From NCBI GenBank assembly GCA_964612665.1, contig CAZTCI010000004.1, forward strand, positions 142,376-206,375: a stretch of 64,000 nucleotides of DNA, in the 5' to 3' direction. Source of the DNA: an uncultured Planctomycetales bacterium (GTDB lineage: Bacteria > Omnitrophota > Gorgyraeia > Zapsychrales > JAHFFX01). Every line of letters begins with the position of its first letter. The stretch's first letter is position 1. This document shows positions 6,205-53,680 of this stretch, in pieces. The position numbers and the translations under genes are program-made. The notes under the pieces were generated by a model. That model saw nothing but the letters and a program-made list of their open reading frames with translations. It was not told the DNA's origin and made no database searches.

Positions 6205-6999
6205 ATGAGAGAGAAAATTTTATCAATGGTTATTTTTGTGTTTGTTGGCATTGTGATTGGCGTTGCCGTCGCCGTTCAGCGCACAACGAATCCGGTTATG
6301 ATAGATCAATTGACTGAAACCGTCCGGTCTTTAAAACAAGTCGAGGCGCATTTAGCGGTCATTGAAAAACACGCTGACACCGTTGCCGCGTTTTTCAAAA
6401 ACGTGGAAGATCAGAACAAGAGAATGCAAGGGCAGCAGCGTCAACAAGGTCCGACGGAAGACTATAGTAAAGTCTATGAAATTGATCCTGGCTCTTCACC
6501 TATTAGAGGTAAGAAGGATGCTCCAGTCACTATCGTTGCTTTTATGGATTTTCAATGTCCCTTTTGCCAACGCTTTCACCCGCCTATCATTGAAACGCTC
6601 AAAGCCTATCCTGACAAAGTTCGATATATTTTAAAGAATTATCCGTTACCTTTTCATCCCCAGGCCCGGCCCGCCGCTAAGGCCGCGCTGGCAGCTGGCG
6701 AACAAGGCAAGTATTACGAGATGGCTGATCTTTTATTGTCCAGCGGTACAAATTTGACCGACGCTCATTTTGAAGAATTGGCCAAACAGCTGGGGTTGGA
6801 TGTTGAGAAATTCAAGAAAGATTATAAAGAAAAAGACGCCAATTGGGAAAAAATCCTCAATGACGATATGGCGTTAGGATCAAAAGTGGATGTCCAAGGA
6901 ACGCCCACCTTTTTCATAAACGGCCGCAAGACAATGGCCCGCGATTTTAATAGTTTCAAAACAGAAATCGACAAGATTCTGAGCGAACAACCTAAATAA
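6205..6999 (+). CDS. DsbA-family thiol:disulfide oxidoreductase with N-terminal membrane anchor and coiled-coil linker
   Basis: Thioredoxin-fold CPFC active site (FMDFQCPFCQRFHP) and DsbA-like C-terminal region. N-terminal TM helix. Confidence 0.65.
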   Translation: MREKILSMVIFVFVGIVIGVAVAVQRTTNPVMIDQLTETVRSLKQVEAHLAVIEKHADTVAAFFKNVEDQNKRMQGQQRQQGPTEDYSKVYEIDPGSSPIRGKKDAPVTIVAFMDFQCPFCQRFHPPIIETLKAYPDKVRYILKNYPLPFHPQARPAAKAALAAGEQGKYYEMADLLLSSGTNLTDAHFEELAKQLGLDVEKFKKDYKEKDANWEKILNDDMALGSKVDVQGTPTFFINGRKTMARDFNSFKTEIDKILSEQPK

Positions 7000-12145: not shown

Positions 12146-12194
12146 TTTGGCCGAGAAAGATTGTTGGTTAAGTAAAGATTTTCTTTTAAACCCG

Positions 12195-13824
<1,630 letters not shown>

Positions 13825-17503: not shown

Positions 17504-18214
17504 ATGCGCTCATTAATAATGAAACCCCGAATTAAAACTGATAGCACCATTCTTGTTGCATTAGTCGTTTTGACTATCCTTTTACTTTATAAATTCCCAC
17601 ATCTTTATACGCGTAACATTCTCGTCGATGATATTCAAGATTTCATCGGTCTATGCGTTGCTTTGATCGGCAATTTTTTAAGAATGACCGCCCGCGGCCA
17701 TAAGAAAAAGCATTCGCAAAGTGGAGAAGACCTTGTTACAACTGGCCCTTACGCCTTAGTCCGTAATCCAATGTACCTCGGAACCTTCCTCATCGGCTGC
17801 GGATTTGCTTTTATCGTCTGGCCGCTGTGGAGCCTGCCTTTGTTCGCCTTTCTTTTTCACTGGCGGTTTAATATTCAAATCAAGATTGAGGAAGAGCATC
17901 TGTCGAAAATTTTCGGTAAAAAATACCAAGCGTACTGTGAACGCGTGCCGCGTTTATTTCCAAGATTAAATGAACTCGTTCAAATAAACTTTAAAAAGAC
18001 CTTTCCGCTCGATGAGATTTGGAGTACAAAAGAGAAGCGGGGGCTGATTTTGTGGCCCGTCGCTGCTATTTTTCTAGACGTGATTCAGGAACAATTCATT
18101 TATCACACCAGTTGTTTGGAAAAAACCGTGTTAATTTTTTTAGTAAGCATGCTTTTGATGGGCGCGATTGGTTGGGTTCTTTATAGACCCGAAAAAGGGT
18201 TAAAGATTGTTTAA
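17504..18214 (+). CDS. isoprenylcysteine carboxyl methyltransferase (ICMT/PEMT) family membrane protein
   Basis: GPYALVRNPMYLGTF...EEEHLSKIFGKKYQAYCERVPRLFP is the ICMT-family C-terminal signature. Multiple TM helices. Confidence 0.65.
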   Translation: MRSLIMKPRIKTDSTILVALVVLTILLLYKFPHLYTRNILVDDIQDFIGLCVALIGNFLRMTARGHKKKHSQSGEDLVTTGPYALVRNPMYLGTFLIGCGFAFIVWPLWSLPLFAFLFHWRFNIQIKIEEEHLSKIFGKKYQAYCERVPRLFPRLNELVQINFKKTFPLDEIWSTKEKRGLILWPVAAIFLDVIQEQFIYHTSCLEKTVLIFLVSMLLMGAIGWVLYRPEKGLKIV

Positions 18215-24215: not shown

Positions 24216-24288
24216 GGGCGGTTAGCTCAGTTGGTAGAGCATCTGACTTACATTCAGAAGGCCGTTGGTTCGAGACCAGCACCGCCCA
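24216..24288 (+). tRNA. tRNA-Val (anticodon TAC)
   Basis: Manual fold: acceptor gggcggt/accgccc, D stem gctc/gagc, anticodon stem tctga/tcaga with loop cuUACau, T loop ttcgaga. Confidence 0.85.
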
Positions 24289-24311
24289 TTTAATAAACGT
24301 ACGATTTATAT

Positions 24312-24340
24312 TTGACAACGTACGCCTCGTAATTTATACT
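24312..24340 (+). promoter_or_regulatory. sigma70-like promoter (TTGACA-N17-TATACT) with flanking ACGTACG repeats, upstream of the TA pair
   Basis: -35 at 24312..24317, -10 at 24335..24340. Direct repeats aacgtacg on both sides of the -35. GGAGG RBS at 24348. Confidence 0.5.
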
Positions 24341-24361
24341 TCGGGTTAGGAGGTAATAATC

Positions 24362-24589
24362 ATGATTAAGCCATCTCAATTTAGAGAAGATATCTATAAT
24401 TTACTCGATCGTGTTATCGAGACAGGAGTTCCTCTGGAAATTAAAAGAAAAGGAAAAGTATTGAAAGTTATGTTGGATAAGAAAGTCAGCAAATTGAGTA
24501 ATCTGAAAAAAAGAAATGTCATGTCAGCCCCGCCTGATTATTATGTTCACTTAGACTGGTCTAAAGAATGGCAATATAAAGATCGATGA
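24362..24589 (+). CDS. type II antitoxin, Phd/YefM-like
   Basis: 75 aa. N-terminal IKPSQFREDIYNLLDRVIETGVPLEIKRKGK resembles the Phd/YefM antitoxin fold. ATGA overlap with the downstream PIN gene. Confidence 0.55.
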   Translation: MIKPSQFREDIYNLLDRVIETGVPLEIKRKGKVLKVMLDKKVSKLSNLKKRNVMSAPPDYYVHLDWSKEWQYKDR

Positions 24590-24960
24590 TTTATTTAGAT
24601 ACTCATATGGTTTTATGGCTTTATTCTGGAGACGTAGATTTGATATCAAAAAAAGTTCTAGATGCGCTTGATAGCGATGAGCTTTATGTTTCTCCCATAG
24701 TAGACTTAGAGTTAGAGTATTTAAAAGAAAGTAAAAAGATTAAAAAATCTCCTTTCGAAATTTTTGAAACCCTCCATAAAGAAATTAATTTAAAAGTCTG
24801 TAGCAAAGATTTTCACAGCATTATAAGAGAAGCCCTCAATATGCATTGGACCAGAGATCCCTTTGATCGTATTATTGTTGCCCATGCTTCTTTAAATAAC
24901 AATCCTTTGATTACCAAAGATGAAAACATTCGAGCTCATTATAAATATGTGATTTGGTGA
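24586..24960 (+). CDS. vapC: PIN-domain toxin (VapC-like)
   Basis: 124 aa. N-terminal acidic Asp (YLDTHMV), central and C-terminal acidic residues (DRIIVAHA) fit the PIN fold. Classic 4-bp overlap with the antitoxin. Confidence 0.65.
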   Translation: MIYLDTHMVLWLYSGDVDLISKKVLDALDSDELYVSPIVDLELEYLKESKKIKKSPFEIFETLHKEINLKVCSKDFHSIIREALNMHWTRDPFDRIIVAHASLNNNPLITKDENIRAHYKYVIW

Positions 24961-27350: not shown

Positions 27351-27611
27351 ATGTATTTTGTATATATTATTAAAAGTGTTAAAAATGGAAGGTATTATAC
27401 AGGTTTCACGAGTAATCTTGAGCTAAGAATAAAACAGCATAACGATGGTCAAACTAAATCTCTTAAGAACCGTGGACCTTTTGAAATAGTTTTTACACAA
27501 ACGTATAATACCGCATTAGAAGCGCGAAGAAGAGAAATTGAGATTAAGAAATATAAGGGGGGAAGAGCATTTAGGGAATTATTAAATTCAAAAGTTGGGC
27601 CCGTGGTGTAG
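27351..27611 (+). CDS. GIY-YIG nuclease family protein (YhbQ-like)
   Basis: YFVYIIKSVKNGRYYTGFTSNLELRIKQH is the GIY-YIG signature. The 3' end overlaps the first 15 nt of tRNA-Asp. Confidence 0.7.
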   Translation: MYFVYIIKSVKNGRYYTGFTSNLELRIKQHNDGQTKSLKNRGPFEIVFTQTYNTALEARRREIEIKKYKGGRAFRELLNSKVGPVV

Positions 27612-27671
27612 TCTGGTTAACATGTCAGATTGTCGATCTGAAGATCGCGCGTTCAAATCGCGTCGGGCCCG
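27597..27671 (+). tRNA. tRNA-Asp (anticodon GTC)
   Basis: Acceptor gggcccg/cgggccc, anticodon stem tcaga/tctga with loop uuGUCga, T arm gcgcg-ttcaaat-cgcgt, discriminator G. Confidence 0.85.
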
Positions 27672-27733
27672 TTCTTCTACGTTCCAATGTTTACACGTTG
27701 GAGCTTCGAAGAAACAGGTTCCTATGAAGTACG

Positions 27734-27762
27734 AAAGCCATCTTATAAATTAAGATGGCTTT
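27734..27762. terminator. hairpin terminator between convergent tRNA-Asp and a minus-strand gene
   Basis: aaagccatctta-taaat-taagatggcttt followed by TTTATTT. Abuts the stop codon of the minus-strand GT-C gene. Confidence 0.6.
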
Positions 27763-27763
27763 T

Positions 27764-28972
27764 TTATTTGGACCACAATTCAGGAGCCGGGTTTAGGGTT
27801 TTTGTCAATACAAAGGCAGTCAGACCGCTGCTGACAAAAATTAGGAAGGCAATAAAAGTTAAACGTAAAACAAAGTAAGCATATTGATTAATTTGTTTGA
27901 CGGTGGTGATCCCTTTGATAATGAGAACGAGCACAACCGGCGCAAAAAAAAGCGAGGTGCGCGGGACCGTGAAAGGATATTTCTTTAACGCACCCAAGGT
28001 CACCAGTTCGACAAAAATAAAAAAGGCTATCGTTGTTAAATTTTTAGAGCGAAATTGATCTTTACGAATATTTGTTAAGAAACCATAAACCATTTCAAAA
28101 ATTCCAATCACCGCAAAAGGAATCCCAAATTTTTTAAAAGTTTTCGGCTTCTCCACAAACCAGCGGAAAAATAAATTACAGACACCCTCGCCGAATGTTT
28201 TAAAGAATTCGGGAATGGACTTCAGTGAAATAAAATAATCTGCCCAGTAATCCACAATCCTCACCGGTTTAAACCGCATGTCAAAACAGTAAGAGATCGT
28301 CGAGAAGAAGATACTCGCCAGTATAAACGTGAGTAAATATCGGCGTTGTTCAGGATTCTCCCGGCTCGCCAGCACTAAATTGTAAAAAACAATCGGAAGA
28401 AAGAAATAAGCTGGATAAGAAAAAAGCACGAGTGCCGGTAAAAGAGCCAGGATGATTCCATAACGGTTATCTTTGCGTGCCTGCAGAGTTTCTTGATTAT
28501 AAATAAATAAAATAAATAAAGCGGCGCTTAAGACATCCATTGAATATTGTTTAAGTTCTGCCGAGTAATAAATCAAAACCGCTGATGCGTTCCAACATAA
28601 AATAAAGGTTAGAACATCCAGTTTATTTTTGAATTCGTAATGGGCGATTTTAAGCCAAACAAAAAAAGCCGTAATCATGGCCGCAAAAGGAAGAAAGCGT
28701 AAGCTGATTAAATGATATTGGAAGGGCTGGGAAAATTTTTGGATGCAAAAAAGATAAAAGTGCGGGAAGACTTGGACGGCCATTAACATGTCATGAAAGA
28801 TGCGATAAGCGTCGAAGTCGCGAATGCTTTGAAAGACACAAAGCTCATCATTCCATAAAGGCCGCATGCAAAGTAAATGCAAAACGCAAAGCCATAGATA
28901 CCAAGAGGCAGCTGCGATAATGACAAATTTTAGAAAGCGTTCTAAGGGAGATGTTTGGGGTGATTGGTTCAT
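27764..28972 (-). CDS. GT-C superfamily membrane glycosyltransferase (ArnT/PMT-like)
   Basis: Polytopic membrane protein with the N-terminal periplasmic-loop motif RPLWNDE characteristic of GT-C polyprenol-phosphate-sugar-dependent transferases. Confidence 0.5.
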   Translation of the reverse strand: MNQSPQTSPLERFLKFVIIAAASWYLWLCVLHLLCMRPLWNDELCVFQSIRDFDAYRIFHDMLMAVQVFPHFYLFCIQKFSQPFQYHLISLRFLPFAAMITAFFVWLKIAHYEFKNKLDVLTFILCWNASAVLIYYSAELKQYSMDVLSAALFILFIYNQETLQARKDNRYGIILALLPALVLFSYPAYFFLPIVFYNLVLASRENPEQRRYLLTFILASIFFSTISYCFDMRFKPVRIVDYWADYFISLKSIPEFFKTFGEGVCNLFFRWFVEKPKTFKKFGIPFAVIGIFEMVYGFLTNIRKDQFRSKNLTTIAFFIFVELVTLGALKKYPFTVPRTSLFFAPVVLVLIIKGITTVKQINQYAYFVLRLTFIAFLIFVSSGLTAFVLTKTLNPAPELWSK

Positions 28973-28984
28973 TTGAATTTGCGT

Positions 28985-29045
28985 GAATGAGCGAAGGAGC
29001 GGGCGCCCCGCTTCGGCGTAAAGCGCTGCGGCGGGGCGCCCGGCG
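28985..29045 (-). other. GC-rich intercistronic hairpin inside the minus-strand operon
   Basis: gggcgccccgc...gcggggcgccc 11-bp perfect stem in otherwise AT-rich DNA, between two co-directional minus-strand genes. Confidence 0.5.
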
Positions 29046-29058
29046 TCTTTATTTCAGC

Positions 29059-29739
29059 TTACAGCAGCTTCTGCGTCAGAATATAAACCATCGTCGGATG
29101 TTTTAAGCAATACATCATGTGCGTACGTTTCAAAGCGACATAAGGCTCGAACCCAGATTTCATAAAAAATGCCTTGGCCTTTTCCGACATGGTGGCGAGA
29201 TGCACACCGCTGACTTTATGTTCTCTTAAATAGTTCAGATAATATTCAATAAGACGGCCGCCGATTTTTTGATTGCGGTAAGCATTGTCGATATTGATAT
29301 GCAAGACGGCAGGATATTTCTCGGTCAAATCGGGAAAGTGCAGATTGCCCTGCAAAAATGCCTTGGCTGATTCCAAAAGAAAGCGCAAAGATTTCTTATT
29401 GACGAGAAAACCGCGCTGAATGAGTTTCAAAATTAATTTAGGCAGAATTCTTGAATTAAATACCCTCATCATCCCGCGCTCATCCAGCGTCCCGGTCAAA
29501 TAACCAATTGTTTTGCCCCGATGTTCCGCCACAAAACAGGATTCGGGTTCATAATCCGTAAAATAAATGGTTAGAAAATCCGCAAGGACTTCATCATCTT
29601 CGAAGAATTGATAACGCGGAAATCCGGCGAAAGATGTTTCGCAGCTGATCAGACGGACACTTTCCCGGTCAGAAGGTTTAAAAGGGCGGATCACAATATT
29701 AGAAAAAATAAAACTCATTTTAGTTTTAAAGCCCTCCAT
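29059..29739 (-). CDS. GNAT-family N-acetyltransferase
   Basis: Acetyl-CoA binding motif region (RNQKIGGRLIEYYLNYLREHKVSGVHLATMSEKAKAFFMKSGFEP). Confidence 0.55.
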   Translation of the reverse strand: MEGFKTKMSFIFSNIVIRPFKPSDRESVRLISCETSFAGFPRYQFFEDDEVLADFLTIYFTDYEPESCFVAEHRGKTIGYLTGTLDERGMMRVFNSRILPKLILKLIQRGFLVNKKSLRFLLESAKAFLQGNLHFPDLTEKYPAVLHINIDNAYRNQKIGGRLIEYYLNYLREHKVSGVHLATMSEKAKAFFMKSGFEPYVALKRTHMMYCLKHPTMVYILTQKLL

Positions 29740-31103
29740 GCTGTGGCCGACAAAGGCAGATTGCCAGAACGCATTCTAACCGACGTCAGTATATAATCCG
29801 GGTCTTTAAGTTCTTTTAAAGGAAACCGAATAATTAAATCTTGTTTGTTAAATTTAACTTCGACACCCGCAACTTCAATGTCCTTTTGCTTATCATAAAA
29901 CTTAAGCCGTGTCCCCCAATTGCTCATTGAAATGCGGATCTTGGGCATATCGGCGAAAGGGATTTTCTTGTTATAACTAAAAAGGAAAAGATTTGTGCCC
30001 AATAATTTGTCTTTCCAGCGCTGAGATGTAATTTTAATTTCAAGAAAACCTTTAGCCTTAGTGTAAACGACAGACTCAATGAATTTATTCTGGACGTCTT
30101 TTTCTTCTGGAAATTGACCTTCAACACCGGTCAATTTTTCTAAATGACTTTGTCCGATTGGCTGGATTTCTTTTTCTTTTACCTCGACGACTGGATACCG
30201 GCCGAAAAGTTCATTTTTCCGCGCGAATGTAAAAAGATAAGGAGGATTATACTCGATTTGGCTTTTATAAAGATTAATCATGTCGTATTTCTTTTGAATG
30301 ACGGCTTTTTCTAAAGGCAGCGAAAACCAGCTAAGATCATGATTTAATTTGGCTGGCGGAATAATTTCAGAATCTGGATGATAACCCCGGGGCTTCGGCC
30401 AGCCCGATAAATGGATAAGATAAGGATAAATTGCGGGTGCCGGTATTTGATCTTCTATATCCCATAAAGCTACCTGCAAAAAAAGAAAACACGCCCGATG
30501 GTCACCGTTACTGTCTACCGGATTGGTCACAAAAATTTTTGTCGGTTTGAAATCTAAAAGAATTTTATCCAAATCTCTTAAAATGTTGTCGCCGAGATAA
30601 GCGGCGTTAGGTGAAAAGGCGTCTTTGTAAGGGACCTGCTGGACACGTGTGAAAAGACTTTTAAAAGGTTTAACCGCACCCCAGTATGAAATAAATATAT
30701 TGAATGTCCCAAAATCCGGATAACCTAAAAAAATCAACTGATCATCTTTAAGGCCTGCCAATCTCATTGCTTTGACAGCTTCATCGCGGCGGATACGGCC
30801 GTAATTGATAAAGGCATTTTTGCGGATAACAAGATGTTTGGAATAAATGATAAAAGCCAATTCATTATTGTCACCGTTCGTTAAATACACTACTTTAATG
30901 GGAATTCCTTGTTTAACCGCTTGCTGGATAACGCCCGCTGTTCCGATGGCTTCATCGTCGGGATGAGGAGCAAAAATCAGAATCCGGTCATCAGCGGTTA
31001 AGGTCGGAAGAGGTTCCGTCGTTATATTTTCTGCAAATCCGCTCACAGCACAGCAGAGCATGATCGCAATTAGAATAAGAATCTTTTTAATTTTCAATGG
31101 CAT
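29715..31103 (-). CDS. secreted PIG-L/LmbE-family N-acetylglucosaminyl deacetylase with extra C-terminal domain
   Basis: Signal peptide MPLKIKKILILIAIMLCCAVSGFA followed by ILIFAPHPDDEAIGTAG (LmbE/PIG-L zinc-binding motif). About 220 additional C-terminal residues of unknown fold. Confidence 0.6.
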   Translation of the reverse strand: MPLKIKKILILIAIMLCCAVSGFAENITTEPLPTLTADDRILIFAPHPDDEAIGTAGVIQQAVKQGIPIKVVYLTNGDNNELAFIIYSKHLVIRKNAFINYGRIRRDEAVKAMRLAGLKDDQLIFLGYPDFGTFNIFISYWGAVKPFKSLFTRVQQVPYKDAFSPNAAYLGDNILRDLDKILLDFKPTKIFVTNPVDSNGDHRACFLFLQVALWDIEDQIPAPAIYPYLIHLSGWPKPRGYHPDSEIIPPAKLNHDLSWFSLPLEKAVIQKKYDMINLYKSQIEYNPPYLFTFARKNELFGRYPVVEVKEKEIQPIGQSHLEKLTGVEGQFPEEKDVQNKFIESVVYTKAKGFLEIKITSQRWKDKLLGTNLFLFSYNKKIPFADMPKIRISMSNWGTRLKFYDKQKDIEVAGVEVKFNKQDLIIRFPLKELKDPDYILTSVRMRSGNLPLSATAWRALKLK

Positions 31104-32729
31104 TTACAATGCTTTCTTTTTTAATATTAATGTCCCATGATTCCACGCCCAGCCTGGTGGATTCATCCAATCACCAATACGCACCGCGGGTTCATAATTA
31201 TTATTTATGTACTGGGCGATCAATGGACAATACGTCTGGCCTAAAATACCTAACCCTTGTTCTGCCGAACTAAAACGGCTTGATAAAACCACATAAGCAA
31301 CATTCTGATTTTTTAATTCATCAATAATCCGTTTTTCTTGTTCGGTTGGAATTTTAATGTGTTCAAAGAAAATCAACTGCCTGGTTGGGCTTTTTTTACC
31401 TGTTAAATAATAGTAAAGACAGTCATAAGGTAAAGCAAAAAATGTTTCATTATTTTGTAGATGGCTGGTTAGAAATTCGGTCGTTACATCTACGGTTTTA
31501 ATCCAGTTGATATCATTGCCGACATACACTTGGCCTTTAGGATAGGTCAAAAAATGTCCAGGCGTTTTATAATGCTCAATAATTTTAAACTGCGGCCAAA
31601 ACTGTGAAAGTCCCACCAATAAAAAACAACCATACAAAAAGTTTTTCCAAACACGAGAAATTTGAAGTGTGGCGACGGCAATAAAGCTAAACATAAGCAT
31701 CAATTGAAATGGTTTGGCCCAGAACGAACGATACAAAACGCCGCTGCGCAAGAATTCATGCATACTTGTCAGGTAAAAAATAATTAAAATGCCGATGAAC
31801 AAAATGATGTCCATACGTTTGTTTGACTCGATCTTTCCTTTAATTAAAAGAAAGACGCTATAAAAAATTGATAAGTTAAGCACAACGGCAAAGACTTTAT
31901 TGGCTAAAACCAATTTTATGTTGTTCCAGGTAATTTCGAATAGAACCTGTAGAGCCTTCACTGGTGATGTTTCATAAGGCTGATCTCCGCCCCAGTACGG
32001 AAAACATTGACGGATTTCATGAATCGTCAATCCGCGCACCAGCCAAGAATAAATTCCAAGGACAGCCGCCGGAAAAAGCAAAATAGCGGCGGCGTAGAAA
32101 TATTTTTTGGCGGCGCCAAAATTATTTTTCTTGAATTTATCAATTAGGAAAACCGAAATCAGCAAAGCGGCTAAAGAACTAAACGCAAAGTTGATTTTAA
32201 TGAAAGCTAAAAGAAAAAGACTTCCTAACGCCCAGAAAAGATAACGCGGTTGAGCATCTTTTAAATACAGATTGAGCGCATAGAAAGCCAGATTAACCAT
32301 GACAATGCCGCCGACATGGTTGTAGGTAAAGAAAAAATCCGCATTAAATATCCAAAACCACAAAGCGGTTAGAAAACTTAAGAATGGAGAAAAAAACAAG
32401 GCCATCGCCCCATAGATCAAAGTGCCAGCTATAAGATTGAGAAGGAGTTTCCCAATTAAAATGCTATGGATGCTAATACCCAAAAGCAGATTGAAGAGCC
32501 CATAATAAAGGATCATGAGCGGCCCGTAGACCCACCAATAATCTTTGTAAGGCTGGCCGCCAGATAGTATCTGTTCAAAAGCGTACAAATCCCGCCCGTG
32601 ATCACCTTGGGCCAGATAATCCTGGAAGTTGTGATAAGGCGCCAGCAAAACGCAGCCCGCCAGAATTGTTAAAATTAAAAATAGGTGTTGTTGGGGTTTA
32701 TTTTTGGTTAGTTCTGTAAGGAAATTCAT
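31104..32729 (-). CDS. large polytopic membrane protein, putative GT-C-type glycosyltransferase
   Basis: 541 aa with more than 10 predicted TM helices. First gene of the minus-strand operon. No confident family assignment. Confidence 0.4.
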   Translation of the reverse strand: MNFLTELTKNKPQQHLFLILTILAGCVLLAPYHNFQDYLAQGDHGRDLYAFEQILSGGQPYKDYWWVYGPLMILYYGLFNLLLGISIHSILIGKLLLNLIAGTLIYGAMALFFSPFLSFLTALWFWIFNADFFFTYNHVGGIVMVNLAFYALNLYLKDAQPRYLFWALGSLFLLAFIKINFAFSSLAALLISVFLIDKFKKNNFGAAKKYFYAAAILLFPAAVLGIYSWLVRGLTIHEIRQCFPYWGGDQPYETSPVKALQVLFEITWNNIKLVLANKVFAVVLNLSIFYSVFLLIKGKIESNKRMDIILFIGILIIFYLTSMHEFLRSGVLYRSFWAKPFQLMLMFSFIAVATLQISRVWKNFLYGCFLLVGLSQFWPQFKIIEHYKTPGHFLTYPKGQVYVGNDINWIKTVDVTTEFLTSHLQNNETFFALPYDCLYYYLTGKKSPTRQLIFFEHIKIPTEQEKRIIDELKNQNVAYVVLSSRFSSAEQGLGILGQTYCPLIAQYINNNYEPAVRIGDWMNPPGWAWNHGTLILKKKAL

Positions 32730-32949
32730 TTTGACGAGGCGCTGAAATCTTTGAAATAATAAATGTTTGTGAGTCTACTGGAGTCATTCTAGTGATTCGC
32801 TGTATGTGTGCGGCCATTATAGGGAAGAGAGGCTTCCGGCTCAATCATTTAGTTACAAATTTGTCTTTAGATTTGATTATAGTGGGGCTTTGATGTACAA
32901 TGCTGGCGATTTTGAGTAAAAGCCTTCCTTTAAATTTTCCAAAGGACCA

Positions 32950-52135: not shown

Positions 52136-52953
52136 ATTCTTATCCTGAATTAAAGGGGAAAGTTGTTGTGATAACCGGCGCTGCGCACGGGATTGGCAAA
52201 GCGTTGGCCATTGCTTTCGCCGAGGCGCACGCGAAGGTCGTGATTGTTGACATTGACCGTCGGGCAGGCGAGGCGTTGTCACAGAAATTGCAAAGAAGCG
52301 GTTTCGAATCGCTTTTCATTTATACGGATTTGAGAAAAGAAGAGCAGATCAAAAAGGCCGTTCAGTTAACTAAAAAGCATTTTAAAAGAATCGATGTCAT
52401 CATTAACAACGCCCGGCCAAGATTGACTAAATTAACTCTGGGCGCTGGTTTAAAAGAATGGGACGCCGCGATGGATGTTTTATTGAAAGCTCCCGCCATG
52501 CTTGTCCATTATGCTCTTTCAGAATTAATCAAGAATAAAGGCCAGATTATTAATATGACATCGACGAATTCCTTTTCTGTTTCTCAACAGCCGTTAGTCT
52601 ATCATGTGGCCAAAGCCGGGATTGTGCAAATGACACGGTATTTGGCTTATGAATTTGGGCCGCAGGGTTTACGGGTCAACGCCATTTGCCCAGCGCTCGT
52701 CGATGTTCCCGATGAAGCTAAACCCTCTTTGACGGCTGATCGAGAAAATGAAGAAGTCATCAAATCAATCGTTCCGCTGCAAAGAGCCGCCAAAGTTAAA
52801 GAGATCGCTCAAAGTGCGCTTTTTTTATGCAGTGAACAGTCTTCGTATTTGACCGGACAAGTGCTTTTGCTTGACGGCGGATTGATGCTGGGCGAGCCTT
52901 TCCGTCTGGCGCGAAAAACATTTCTTAAAGGTAAACACCCAAATCATGTCTAA
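52132..52953 (+). CDS. SDR-family oxidoreductase
   Basis: VVVITGAAHGIGKALAIAF motif. YHVAKAG YxxxK. Confidence 0.8.
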   Translation: MNSYPELKGKVVVITGAAHGIGKALAIAFAEAHAKVVIVDIDRRAGEALSQKLQRSGFESLFIYTDLRKEEQIKKAVQLTKKHFKRIDVIINNARPRLTKLTLGAGLKEWDAAMDVLLKAPAMLVHYALSELIKNKGQIINMTSTNSFSVSQQPLVYHVAKAGIVQMTRYLAYEFGPQGLRVNAICPALVDVPDEAKPSLTADRENEEVIKSIVPLQRAAKVKEIAQSALFLCSEQSSYLTGQVLLLDGGLMLGEPFRLARKTFLKGKHPNHV

Positions 52954-53680
52954 CGACATCTCTATTATCGTTCTAGCTTTCAACGAAGAAAAGAATATTG
53001 AATCCGCCATCGACAATGTCATCCAAGCGATTAAACCTTGCGTGTCTGATTATGAAATTCTCGTCGTTAACGACGGCAGCCGGGACACCACAGGGACTTT
53101 GACGGAAGCAAAAGCCAAAGAGAATCCCAAAGTAAAAGTCATTCACAATGAAGTCAACCGCGGCTATGGTTACAGTTACCGTCGGGCGCTAGCCTTGGCT
53201 TCCAAAACTTATGCCACAACTTTTTCGGGCGATAACGACATGACGGCGGAATCGTTGCAAAATCTTTTGGCGGCAATGGGAACCGCTGATGTGATTTGTA
53301 ATTATTATGATCCAAAGACAAACCAGAGAGGCCTTTTAAGAAAAATGTTATCCAAGTCGTTTGCGTTTTTTATTAATACACTTTTTGGTTTGCATTTGAA
53401 ATATACAAACGGCTCTTGCCTGTGCCTAGTTGAGACGCTGCGCCAATTAGCCTTAAAGTCCGACGGGCTTGCGATCAATACGGAAATTCTTGTGAAGCTA
53501 TTAAAGTCAGGCTGCAGTTACAAAGAAGTCCCTTTAGATCATATTGGACGCCATTCAGGAAAATCAACAGCATTGACCTTGCGTAGTTTAAAGATGGTAT
53601 TGAGGACGATCAGCATTTTAATCAAAGATGTTTATTTGTCACCGTCCGTTAAACAAGAGAGTGCTGTTTCTTGCCTATGA
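52946..53680 (+). CDS. GT2 polyprenol-phosphate sugar synthase (Dpm1/GtrB/CsbB-like)
   Basis: ISIIVLAFNEEKNIESAID...YEILVVNDGSRD GT2 DxD region. About 240 aa, typical of the Dpm1/GtrB family. Immediately followed by a YfhO-like GT-C gene. Confidence 0.75.
   Translation: MSNDISIIVLAFNEEKNIESAIDNVIQAIKPCVSDYEILVVNDGSRDTTGTLTEAKAKENPKVKVIHNEVNRGYGYSYRRALALASKTYATTFSGDNDMTAESLQNLLAAMGTADVICNYYDPKTNQRGLLRKMLSKSFAFFINTLFGLHLKYTNGSCLCLVETLRQLALKSDGLAINTEILVKLLKSGCSYKEVPLDHIGRHSGKSTALTLRSLKMVLRTISILIKDVYLSPSVKQESAVSCL

Follow-up and report, generated by a model that had tools for sequence, protein, structure and literature searches.

Enzymes of the LmbE/PIG-L superfamily (PF02585; CE14 in CAZy), such as MshB, BshB, the Pyrococcus diacetylchitobiose deacetylase, BC1534 and TT1542, share a fold with an AHPDDE motif and a His/Asp/His zinc triad, and are cytoplasmic proteins. 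In the eukaryotic GPI pathway (PIG-A, PIG-L, PIG-W, PIG-M), PIG-L works at the cytoplasmic side, prior to flipping, and the inositol is acylated by PIG-W, which is a membrane acyltransferase and not a GNAT; an LmbE enzyme and a GNAT both take part in mycothiol synthesis. The Arn system (ArnA/ArnC/ArnD/ArnT) masks and unmasks an aminosugar that is formylated, deformylated and then transferred by ArnT. To our knowledge, none of the described three-component systems of extracytoplasmic glycosylation (a GtrB/CsbB GT2, a flippase and a GT-C enzyme, e.g., YfhO) includes a periplasmic deacetylase or a GNAT, and we know of no member of the GNAT subfamily formed by SsAT (4bmh), OgpAT (3zj0) and the O-GlcNAcase pseudo-HAT domains with a known substrate. 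Unmasking of an N-acyl-masked amino sugar on polyprenyl phosphate by a hydrolase, followed by periplasmic GT-C transfer, has been described (PMC11279074; PMC8168481): NaxD deacetylates undecaprenyl-P-GalNAc ahead of its transfer to lipid A (PMC11279074), and LgmB adds GlcN to lipid A in an LpxL1-dependent manner (PMC8168481). An acetyl-CoA-binding protein, SsAT also possesses a pocket for a small molecule (PMC3919268). No description of an SsAT-type GNAT linked to an LmbE enzyme was found in the literature.

Layout of the four-gene block

The 64,000-nt stretch of DNA analyzed here (hereafter, the window) comes from an uncultured Omnitrophota MAG. At the positions listed below, it contains exactly four minus-strand ORFs, denoted A, B, C and D, that form the sole long minus-strand block, the rest of the window being almost wholly plus-strand. 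Each has hundreds of full-length homologs at 42–54% identity, and they are therefore genuine genes as opposed to fortuitous ORFs. The preliminary description of this DNA, which listed the same four genes at the same positions, likened them to GPI-anchor-type glycolipid remodeling; the general idea of glycolipid remodeling survives, whereas the specific analogy with the GPI, PIM or bacillithiol pathways falls. The observations detailed below point to an uncharacterized modification of a membrane-anchored cell-surface sugar and, tentatively, we propose that A–D constitute an envelope sugar-modification module that would work across the inner membrane on a putative substrate. The features of the locus are as follows.

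27596-27672, tRNA-Asp gene, converging on D
27733..27763, no strand assigned, terminator-like 13-bp hairpin directly 3' of the D stop, before the converging tRNA-Asp gene
27764..28972, minus strand, gene D, 402-aa minimal GT-C-fold glycosyltransferase (structural model)
29000..29042, minus strand, GC-rich hairpin (12-bp stem) of the C–D spacer (RNA folding)
29059..29718, minus strand, gene C, predicted 219-aa cytoplasmic GNAT N-acyltransferase (Pfam, start-site comparison)
29715..31103, minus strand, gene B, 462-aa exported LmbE/PIG-L (CE14-type) deacetylase (PF02585 and model)
29724..30080, minus strand, B residues 342–460, family-specific Ig-like beta-sandwich of ~120 aa (model)
30189..30986, minus strand, B residues 40–305, complete LmbE catalytic fold (model, alignment)
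31032..31103, minus strand, B residues 1–24, signal peptide (sequence reading)
31104..32729, minus strand, gene A, 541-aa polytopic membrane protein, probably of GT-C type (ORF)
32730..32949, no strand assigned, divergent intergenic region between A and a radical-SAM gene, candidate promoter for A-B-C(-D)

The stop codon of A directly abuts the start of B (TAAATG, 0 nt between them), and B and C overlap by ATGA if C begins at M8, its likely start, which yields 219 aa as called in locus L084 (the ORF reaches 29739, i.e., 226 aa). The spacer between C and D is 86 nt long, and its hairpin (-39.4 kcal/mol, z = -3.3), for which none of 200 shuffles was equally stable, has no second copy in the window. 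On the minus strand of the divergent region (32844-32816), there is a sigma-70-like site (TTGAGC-17-TATAAT, 10/12), which is a candidate only, given that such sites are not enriched over shuffles. The radical-SAM gene on the other side of this region is the head of a plus-strand glycan locus of more than 30 kb, at the edge of which A–D are located. This locus encodes GT9, NDP-sugar epimerases/dehydratases, TPP enzymes and C-methyltransferases, and it is syntenic with A–D in relatives too.

The exported LmbE-fold enzyme B

B is a zinc amidase of the LmbE fold, and its metal site is intact. Residues 42–209 match the Pfam family PIG-L (PF02585, 82.5 bits, cut-off 28.2), and the AlphaFold model (pLDDT 84.6, pTM 0.85) is aligned by Foldseek over 270–300 columns (E~1e-8) with diacetylchitobiose deacetylase, BC1534, MshB and BshB, i.e., B shares with the superfamily the fold of ~270–300 residues, along with the AHPDDE motif and the zinc triad (H47/D50/H202), albeit at an identity of only 14–20%. 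H47, D49, D50 and H202 are all invariant. In contrast to the known enzymes, the usual HPDH motif is represented by N199-x-D201-H202, where the invariant N199 is placed opposite the first His of HPDH in an HMM alignment with the Pyrococcus diacetylchitobiose deacetylase; given this Asn, the chemistry or specificity of B may differ from that of known LmbE enzymes.

The "extra" C-terminal domain of ~220 aa suggested in the preliminary description was oversized: in the structure model, this region comprises the second half of the LmbE fold (to residue ~305), a disordered linker (residues 317–338) and the beta-sandwich. For the latter, the Foldseek matches are no more than weak, generic Ig folds, and a phmmer search against 1.84 billion representative proteins yielded 159 matches, nearly all of which are the C-terminus of B-like proteins or fragments thereof; the long, repetitive P0372 and P0435 are probably spurious. 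The beta-sandwich is a new domain which, together with the linker and a conserved signal peptide, sets B apart from its LmbE/PIG-L relatives.

The N-terminal export signal of B consists of MPLKIKK, ILILIAIMLCCAV and SGFA, followed by EN, and residues 3–20 are modeled as a helix. Of 120 B homologs, 104 pass a crude test for a signal peptide (basic n-region, hydrophobic core, small-x-small site), and the majority of the others seem to have truncated gene starts. The topology is fixed by a natural fusion. In P0444, encoded on a 93-kb contig, a GNAT similar to C of the window (E 2.5e-29) precedes, in this order, RRRRR, a TM helix, the LmbE domain and the C-domain; the GNAT needs acetyl-CoA and is thus cytoplasmic and, with a single TM helix in between, the LmbE domain is outside. 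In the PEMT fusions, LmbE comes after a K/R-rich loop and a final TM helix, and P0478 has a signal peptide, then APP1_cat, then LmbE. Such recurrent fusions, in which ~20 residues tether the LmbE domain to a TM helix and the partners are a C-type GNAT, PEMT/ICMT-like membrane methyltransferases or an APP1-like lipid phosphatase, locate this domain on the outer side of the inner membrane, next to enzymes that modify lipids. The earlier remark that an exported LmbE enzyme is unusual stands, the solved relatives of B found here being all enzymes that we take to be cytoplasmic.

Alternatively, B could de-N-acetylate a polymer (a PNAG-like exopolysaccharide, LPS O-chain or core, or peptidoglycan) as a soluble protein of the periplasm, an LmbE-fold counterpart of PgaB, IcaB or PgdA whose beta-sandwich would bind the glycan. 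A and D would then be neighbors engaged in building that glycan or a different one, without a shared lipid-linked intermediate. The AxA-type cleavage sites conserved in the family suggest that its ordinary members lose the signal peptide and are soluble periplasmic proteins, a state that would be equally compatible with a polymer substrate. Chitobiose deacetylases are among the best fold matches, the overall shape of the beta-sandwich is reminiscent of glycan-binding modules, and most B genes have no adjacent GT-C gene. In the locus of the fusion P0409, the B fusion is adjoined by PEGA, processive-type GT2 and CE4 polysaccharide deacetylase genes, which point to an exopolysaccharide and not to a lipid-linked donor. 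Nevertheless, the tethering of LmbE near a TM helix and lipid head-group enzymes (PEMT/ICMT-like, APP1-like) in the fusions speaks against this explanation, and the tight B–C pair and the fusion of B with a cytoplasmic GNAT would be difficult to account for with an already exported polymer. We view polymer deacetylation as possible, if rather doubtful.

The acyltransferase, the membrane proteins and the proposed pathway

The GNAT assignment of C is borne out by Pfam (PF00583, 37 bits, cut-off 20.7; PF13508 is matched too), and neither a signal peptide nor a TM segment was found in this protein. In the family alignment, the R-x-x-G-x-G acetyl-CoA motif is retained, with Lys at the first Gly in C of the window. 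The best solved relative is SsAT (4bmh, E 1.3e-14, residues 16–199), followed by the O-GlcNAcase HAT-like domains 6r45, 9qep and 3zj0.

D adopts the GT-C fold according to its model (pLDDT 93.4), with an invariant Asp-Glu in the first outward loop. The RPLWNDE motif noticed previously occupies residues 37–43, after TM1, in the first periplasmic loop; R37, W40, D42 and E43 are invariant in 40 homologs, and a large periplasmic domain is absent. The 22 best Foldseek matches in PDB are GT-C-superfamily or related ER-membrane complex chains, including ALG12, Pmt4, ArnT (5f15, TMq 0.52), PglB, ALG9, AftA/B and EmbC, as well as a GRP94/translocon chain and GPI-transamidase chain U. D itself has no direct Pfam match; PMT_2 (PF13231) is detected in 17 of the 40 homologs, at 35 bits or less.

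Of the two GT-C proteins named in the preliminary description, D is thus shown by structure to be one, whereas A, judging by sequence, is probably a GT-C-type glycosyltransferase. This protein has at least 8 hydrophobic segments and a conserved C-terminal soluble region (~390–541), and its 440 homologs are all of Omnitrophota type. Just past TM1, it contains GDHGRD, in which G42, D43, G45, R46 and D47 are invariant and H44 is present in at least 90% of the homologs. There is no direct match to A in Pfam, NCBIfam or PDB, and PMT_2 is found in 11 of 40 homologs over the entire model (4–160 of 160; best score 26.6 bits, cut-off 26.1).

The substrate of the proposed module would be a membrane-anchored N-acetyl-hexosamine, either a sugar carried by polyprenyl phosphate or an acceptor of glycolipid or LPS type. 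In the cytoplasm, C would use acetyl-CoA to N-acetylate the amino sugar, so that the amine is masked for assembly and flipping, and B would strip the acetyl group at the periplasmic face, exposing the free amine. D, and probably A, would use lipid-linked donors at the periplasmic face for sugar transfer to, or extension on, an envelope glycan that might be the product of the large adjacent sugar-biosynthesis locus. By analogy, we infer that the operon logic is nearer to Arn or NaxD/FlmK-type aminosugar decoration than to GPI synthesis. The proposed scheme has the mask-unmask-transfer logic of Arn, Francisella/Acinetobacter NaxD-FlmK and Bordetella LgmABC; D matches ArnT structurally, although it is much smaller and lacks the ArnT periplasmic domain, and the B family is often found near an LpxL-like gene. 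The departure from these systems is the LmbE-type deacetylase, as opposed to YdjC or CE4, placed outside the membrane and not at the cytoplasmic face, along with a dedicated GNAT and the absence of an adjacent polyprenyl-P GT2.

Gene order in other genomes and alternative explanations

The complete A-B-C-D order is absent from all 80 B loci and all 81 D-family loci (L081-L083 and 78 of L086-L164) examined in other organisms. In the closest relatives, A is directly followed by D, without B–C (L081-083, L086, L087, L091, L132). Given this unique order and the A–D pair of the closest relatives, the coupling of B–C to A and D in the window could be recent or incidental. The partners do, however, occur together in part: in 21 of the 80 species genomes, C immediately follows B; D-B-C is found in L096/L114, L104 and L099, and D-B in L142 (in total, 4 of the 52 D loci with enough flank); and five genomes have B-C-PMT-type GT-C or PMT-B-C, where the PMT-type GT-C is an unrelated one. 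In addition, a PEMT-like gene adjoins B in L030 and L002. Thus, four different gene orders and two unrelated GT-C families are involved, with chance adjacency of one given gene pair estimated at ~0.1% per genome. That the deacetylase is linked with the GNAT and with GT-C proteins is supported by the fusions and by these several independent gene orders.

A point against the proposed module is that about 70% of the B genes have neither a GNAT nor a GT-C gene alongside. The family otherwise belongs, in about half of the genomes, to an envelope-lipid block (Lnt, LpxL-like acyltransferase, Lgt), the neighbors in 75 B loci being LpxL-like (38), Lnt (31) and SecA (30); Lgt adjoins B in L009. This block, as well as the A–D pairs, would fit an explanation without any functional unit, whereby B–C is a roaming two-gene cassette inserted by chance between A and D, and the real role of B is in lipid A or lipoprotein maturation, in keeping with the usual location of its gene between lnt and that of an LpxL-like acyltransferase. 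Hairpins of other sequence occupy the same place 5' of D in the A–D spacers of L087, L091, L081 and L083, i.e., the hairpin is ancestral to this spacer, which likewise speaks for this explanation. We nonetheless consider a chance cassette unlikely: the independent D-B(-C) and B-C-PMT orders in other lineages speak against pure chance, the insertion gave perfect translational coupling at the A/B junction, the composition of B–C shows no anomaly, and lnt-secA-prfB is housekeeping synteny that does not necessarily imply a shared function.

A GPI/PIM-like pathway, in which B would remove the N-acetyl group of GlcNAc-phosphatidylinositol, C would acylate the product and GT-C enzymes would add mannose, appears very improbable. 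The PIG-L family assignment of B and the GT-C fold of D, with matches that include ALG and PMT mannosyltransferases, are common to both, but B is no nearer to PIG-L than to other LmbE enzymes, its location outside the membrane makes the topology opposite, C is another kind of acyltransferase and not PIG-W-like, the arrangement seen here is not conserved, and no PIG-A-like GT4 (GlcNAc-PI synthase) and no inositol-lipid or PI-synthesis genes were found in the annotated 22.6–62 kb. Synthesis of a low-molecular-weight thiol of the mycothiol or bacillithiol kind, with a MshB/BshB-like deacetylase and a MshD-like GNAT, has next to no probability despite the weak NCBIfam matches of B to BshB1/2, MshB and Mca, as these are far under the equivalog cut-offs (30 vs. 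182–277 bits), B is exported, C is SsAT-like and not MshD-like, and neither a BshA/MshA GT4 nor a Cys ligase was found among the annotated genes nearby.

Compared with the three-component extracytoplasmic systems, the window combines the PMT_2-like A and D with two GT2 enzymes and three YfhO-like GT-C proteins of the glycan locus. The small GT2, the sole such candidate for polyprenyl-P-sugar synthesis, is encoded 20 kb away from A–D by a gene that overlaps, and is paired with, one of the YfhO-like genes, which counts against the proposed module; two more YfhO-like genes are present in addition.

Layout of the operon and its surroundings

The four operon genes, transcribed in the order A, B, C, D, constitute the sole long minus-strand block of the window, the rest of which is almost all plus-strand. 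The ORF listing bears out the preliminary description of four consecutive minus-strand genes. They are transcribed divergently from the left edge of a large surface-glycan locus.

Operon genes, the hairpin upstream of D and the adjacent glycan locus (window coordinates)
31104-32729, minus strand: gene A, ORF of 541 aa, membrane protein
29715-31103, minus strand: gene B, ORF of 462 aa, predicted LmbE/PIG-L deacetylase
29059-29739, minus strand: gene C, ORF of 226 aa, predicted GNAT acyltransferase
29000-29042, minus strand: hairpin upstream of D, 12-bp stem, -39.4 kcal/mol, z = -3.3, in an AT-rich genome
27764-28972, minus strand: gene D, ORF of 402 aa, predicted minimal GT-C transferase
32950-63935, plus strand: surface-glycan locus of more than 30 kb, at the right edge of the operon, traced to at least 61885 and making up the right-hand two-fifths of the window

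The start of B lies immediately 3' of the stop of A (TAAATG), and the stop of B overlaps, as ATGA, an in-frame start of C at M8, which yields a 219-aa product, as called on reads of the same organism. Proteins identical to those of the window are found on a 340-kb NCBI contig and in runs SRR12313477 and SRR12313478, and the homologues of the operon proteins are labelled Candidatus Omnitrophota. The C-D spacer of 86 nt contains the strong GC-rich hairpin. Hairpins with other stem sequences are present at the matching place in relatives in which A and D are adjacent (L087, ~6930-6985; L091, ~6945-6995; L081, 7829-8000; L083, 2549-2664); the stems in the relatives are GGCGGCCCACC...GGTGGGCCGCC and CCTTCGA...TCGAAGG. 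It seems to be the structure rather than the sequence of this element that is conserved. Attenuation between the cistrons, RNA processing or stabilisation of the D transcript could be its function. Because the A-D spacers of the relatives hold a hairpin just upstream of D, B and C in the window sit between the stop of A and the ancestral hairpin. There is no compositional sign of recent transfer of B and C (GC 0.40-0.42, vs. 0.39 for A and D), and promoter-like and terminator-like sites show no enrichment over shuffles.

The glycan locus encodes a radical SAM protein, a GT9 protein, several NDP-sugar epimerases and dehydratases, TPP enzymes (split E1 alpha/beta, transketolase-like and acetolactate-synthase/YerE-like), methyltransferases including one of the zinc-finger C-methyltransferase type, SDRs, an aldo-keto reductase (AKR), PhyH, three large YfhO-like GT-C proteins (957, 907 and 745 aa) and two GT2 proteins, of which the gene for a small one overlaps a YfhO-like gene. 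This gene content suggests the production of a branched or C-methylated unusual sugar along with several extracytoplasmic glycosylation steps.

A small GIY-YIG nuclease-domain ORF (86 aa, window 27351-27611, plus strand), which ends 16 nt inside tRNA-Asp, adjoins D, and homologous small GIY-YIG genes are located beside B or D in at least seven other loci (L010, L012, L015, L058, L106, L110, L132); if mobile, as they might be, these genes may help to reshuffle B and D. Elsewhere in the window, ORFs from 12284 are preceded by a PyrR-binding RNA element (12178-12287, plus strand) whose 54.5 bits only just reach the gathering score, and, within 24216-24960, an ORF for a PIN-domain toxin-like protein (24586-24960, plus strand) follows tRNA-Val.

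An exported LmbE family and its GNAT partner

B is a member of the LmbE/PIG-L superfamily by profile, fold and zinc ligands. It matches the PIG-L profile of Pfam (PF02585, CE14) with 82.5 bits (cut-off 28.2) over residues 42-209. In a structure model built on 30 family members (pLDDT 84.6, pTM 0.85), an N-terminal helix (3-20) is followed by the Rossmann-like LmbE fold (~40-305), a disordered linker (317-338) and a beta-sandwich (342-460). The LmbE fold aligns over 270-300 columns (Foldseek E~1e-8) with 4xm2, 2ixd, 4ewl and 6p2t, the matches including diacetylchitobiose deacetylase, BC1534, MshB, BshB and TT1542, whereas the ~120-residue sandwich yields weak, generic Ig-fold matches. The preliminary description had credited B with an extra C-terminal domain of ~220 aa; a new domain does exist in the model, about 120 residues long, and the other half, left uncovered by the Pfam model, belongs to the catalytic fold, so that the estimate was too large. 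The C-terminal domain was searched against 1.84 billion representative proteins, and the longer matches were then scanned for fusions; the sandwich is a private domain of this family, seen nowhere else.

Residues H47, D49, D50 and H202 are invariant in the 30 sequences and align with the diacetylchitobiose deacetylase motifs, so that the zinc His and Asp of (A/P)HPDDE, the catalytic Asp and the second His of HPDH are all present; in place of the first His of HPDH, typical of the superfamily, the B family has an invariant Asn (N199). By motif and model, B is apparently a competent LmbE zinc amidase.

The N-terminus of B (MPLKIKK, then ILILIAIMLCCAV, then SGFA|EN) has the form of a Sec signal, and 104 of 120 homologues pass a crude export test (basic n-region, hydrophobic core and small-x-small site), with most of the failures looking like truncated gene starts. 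Independent support for export comes from natural fusions. In P0444, the order is GNAT, RRRRR, one TM helix, LmbE and sandwich; its GNAT part matches the C protein of the window (E 2.5e-29), and the surroundings of the gene, on a contig of 93 kb, are ordinary. Given that GNAT requires cytoplasmic acetyl-CoA and that a single TM helix intervenes, the LmbE domain of this protein should be outside. In three separate clusters (P0376, P0409, P0434), a PEMT/ICMT-like membrane methyltransferase is fused to the B module by way of a loop rich in K/R and a final TM helix; P0478 combines a signal peptide, an APP1-type phosphatidate-phosphatase-like domain and LmbE; and P0458 has a lipobox immediately N-terminal to the LmbE part. 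The caution in the preliminary description that the N-terminal segment might anchor B in the cytoplasm does not withstand the conserved signal and the fusion topologies: whether cleaved or anchored, the catalytic domain is predicted to face the periplasm.

To our knowledge, all characterised LmbE/PIG-L enzymes are cytoplasmic or act at the cytoplasmic face of the membrane. Literature searches for periplasmic LmbE enzymes and for WabN returned nothing relevant, and PIG-L and LmbE are unmentioned in the lipocone paper. The B family spans essentially the whole candidate phylum Omnitrophota, with a few matches labelled as other lineages; it is an orphan family set apart by its topology, by the sandwich domain of its own and by fusions that are informative.

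A homologue of the PEMT/ICMT-like methyltransferase (236-aa ORF, E 4e-15) is encoded in the window itself, at 17504-18214 on the plus strand, 10 kb from the operon; elsewhere, this domain is fused to B-type LmbE modules or encoded beside B.

C is, by profile and motif, a GNAT acyl-CoA N-acyltransferase. It matches PF00583 with 37 bits (cut-off 20.7) and also PF13508. Among solved structures, SsAT (PDB 4bmh) is the closest to it, at E 1.3e-14, and O-GlcNAcase HAT-like domains come next. The acetyl-CoA motif, R/Q-x-x-G-x-G/A in GNAT enzymes, has the family consensus R-G-x-G-I-G, in which R148 and G153 hardly vary; the copy in the window reads R-N-Q-K-I-G. No signal peptide or TM segment was found in C. 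For the orphan protein SsAT, acetyl-CoA binding and a pocket for a small molecule have been described (PMC3919268).

Membrane proteins A and D and the conservation of gene order

The preliminary description included two GT-C proteins. For D this holds by structure: the model (pLDDT 93.4) has a minimal GT-C fold without the usual large periplasmic domain, and its 22 best PDB matches are all GT-C superfamily proteins or related ER-membrane complex chains (Foldseek), among them ALG12, Pmt4, ArnT, PglB, ALG9, AftA/B and EmbC, the best dozen with TMq of 0.45-0.63. The RPLWNDE motif directly follows TM1 (helix 9-34), placing the invariant D42 and E43 in the first extracytoplasmic loop. D itself has no direct Pfam match. 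Of 40 homologues, 17 align with PMT_2 (PF13231) over the full length of the model, at up to 35 bits, so that a place for D in PMT_2 would follow by transitive homology only. For A, the assignment is unproven: there is no direct match in Pfam or in the PDB profile search, and PMT_2 matches 11 of 40 homologues marginally, at 24-26.6 bits against a cut-off of 26.1. Given these matches and the GDHGRD motif, invariant after TM1 (including D43 and D47), A is probably a GT-C protein as well. Sequence profiles alone could place neither protein: A- and D-family profiles gave only noise against all PDB sequences, and hhalign probabilities were ~2% or less for A vs. D, A vs. PMT and D vs. PMT, so A and D are not detectably paralogous. 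L086 (3758-8559) has two tandem copies of A (546 and 537 aa), and in front of its complete D there is a D-like fragment of 132 aa.

Loci of B were collected from 80 species-representative genomes with a B homologue, including 8-kb flanks; in the genome scan, a single B protein as query retrieved nothing and the family alignment succeeded. The four-gene order is found in none of these 80 loci and in none of 81 D-family loci of other organisms, being shared only by reads of the same organism (L084, L085). Conservation of the operon as a unit, a check suggested in the preliminary description, is rejected since tblastn, phmmer and family HMMs detected no relatives of A or D near B in the 80 loci, even at E<1 to E<10. 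The A-B-C-D operon of the window is a one-off. The nearest A and D relatives (~50% identity) share the right flank (radical SAM, GT9, epimerase and E1 dehydrogenase), and D directly follows A in L081-083, L086, L087, L091 and L132. In other metagenomes, D is surrounded by housekeeping genes without relation to it (sulfate permease, Ppx, Ppk, ABC-2, FKBP and CofD), which therefore add no further pathway partners.

What recurs are smaller combinations. C immediately follows B in 21 of the 80 genomes; D-B-C or D-B is present in 4 of the 52 D loci with enough flank (L096/L114, L104, L099, L142); B-C is preceded or followed by an unrelated PMT/PMT_2 GT-C gene in L015, L024, L025, L067 and L013; and a PEMT-like gene adjoins B in L030 and L002. 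With four gene orders, GT-C genes from two unrelated families and a fusion of the Rosetta-stone kind, there is good evidence for a joint function of B, C and GT-C enzymes. Upstream of the B-C pair of L028 (4574-7995), there are unusual membrane-enzyme neighbors, namely a 7-TM protein with C-terminal TPR repeats and an HTTM/vitamin-K-carboxylase-like protein that carries HTTM and a VKGC lumenal domain.

A possible role in remodelling of envelope amino sugars

The link of an exported LmbE protein with GNAT and GT-C enzymes in envelope glycoconjugate remodelling, which was part of the preliminary description, is upheld by the signal, the fusions and the recurrent gene orders. We tentatively propose, with slightly less than even confidence, that the substrate of B is a membrane-anchored HexNAc, attached to a lipid. 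Under this proposal, C would N-acetylate an amino sugar inside the cell, B would take the acetyl off at the outer face of the membrane, and D, probably with A, would draw on lipid-linked donors to transfer sugars or extend them at that face. The proposal is based on the exported LmbE, the GNAT that lacks an export signal and is genetically coupled to B, the GT-C fold of D and the lipid-directed fusion partners.

A more specific version is quite unlikely: a trans-membrane cycle, not recognised before, in which a lipid-anchored amino sugar is acetylated inside and de-acetylated outside. A cytoplasmic SsAT-like GNAT and an exported LmbE, sometimes within one membrane-spanning polypeptide, would yield, on the periplasmic side, a glycolipid or lipid-linked donor bearing a free amine, for use by the unusually small GT-C enzymes; the periplasmic domain missing from D might be provided in trans by the family-specific beta-sandwich of B. 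Such a cycle would amount to a bacterial version, with inverted topology, of the step from GlcNAc-PI to GlcN-PI and would provide the first physiological role for the O-GlcNAcase-HAT-like GNAT subfamily. Free amino sugars govern surface charge and cationic-peptide resistance. Should the proposed mechanism hold, it would represent a new enzyme class and a new topology for free amino sugars on the bacterial envelope, and would hint at the kind of substrate on which the orphan SsAT/O-GlcNAcase-HAT-like GNATs act. Should it fail, the B family, wired by fusion and adjacency to GNAT, lipid-head-group enzymes and GT-C transferases, would still be a well-defined orphan with clear experimental handles.

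The main rival, that B is a soluble periplasmic polysaccharide de-N-acetylase, we consider unlikely, if worth keeping in mind; the cleavage sites conserved in the B family speak for it, as does the locus of the P0409 fusion, with its CE4 deacetylase and processive-type GT2, and the fusions to lipid-directed partners favor a lipid-anchored substrate. In that locus (L166, 1225-8049), the PEMT::LmbE gene is directly 3' of the CE4 polysaccharide deacetylase gene, two deacetylase folds thus being encoded side by side, and the contig also encodes a PEGA-domain protein.

It is similarly improbable that the adjacency is incidental and that B acts on lipid A or lipoprotein. In about half of the genomes, B is embedded in a conserved block (prfB, secA, lnt, M23 peptidase, a divergent CDF zinc exporter, B, a PF04008 protein and an LpxL-like acyltransferase), and in L009 it lies between lgt and a GNAT gene; these envelope-lipid neighbors are weak evidence, reflecting housekeeping synteny. 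The CDF zinc-type exporter (Cation_efflux and ZT_dimer) divergently adjoins B in 24 of 75 loci (L005, L008, L011, L018, L022, L026 and others) and could be a source of metal for the zinc enzyme once exported, or this could be plain synteny.

The GPI-type pathway logic of the preliminary description is highly improbable and the analogy should be dropped, given that B is exported, that the acyltransferase is a GNAT, and that the 38 neighbors scanned include no GPI genes, neither a PIG-A-like GlcNAc-PI synthase nor a PIG-W-type acyltransferase. A role of B in mycothiol or bacillithiol synthesis was rejected, with next to no probability left for a thiol pathway, given the export and scores far below the equivalog cut-offs.

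For A-B-C-D as a system acting on a lipid-anchored amino sugar, the nearest working analogy is the Arn, NaxD-FlmK and Lgm decoration of lipid A. The Arn pathway first adds a formyl group to the sugar and later removes it. NaxD deacetylates undecaprenyl-P-GalNAc ahead of GT-C transfer (PMC11279074), and LgmB adds GlcN to lipid A, dependent on LpxL1 (PMC8168481). These systems employ a YdjC/CE4 deacetylase, an adjacent polyprenyl-P-HexNAc GT2 and a GT83 (ArnT-family) transferase, whereas A-B-C-D has an LmbE fold on the other side of the membrane, no GT2 within the operon (the nearest small one is at 52946-53680) and, in D, a GT-C protein that neither Pfam nor the structural matches assign to GT83. 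By analogy, A-B-C-D may work like these systems but is not a member of them.
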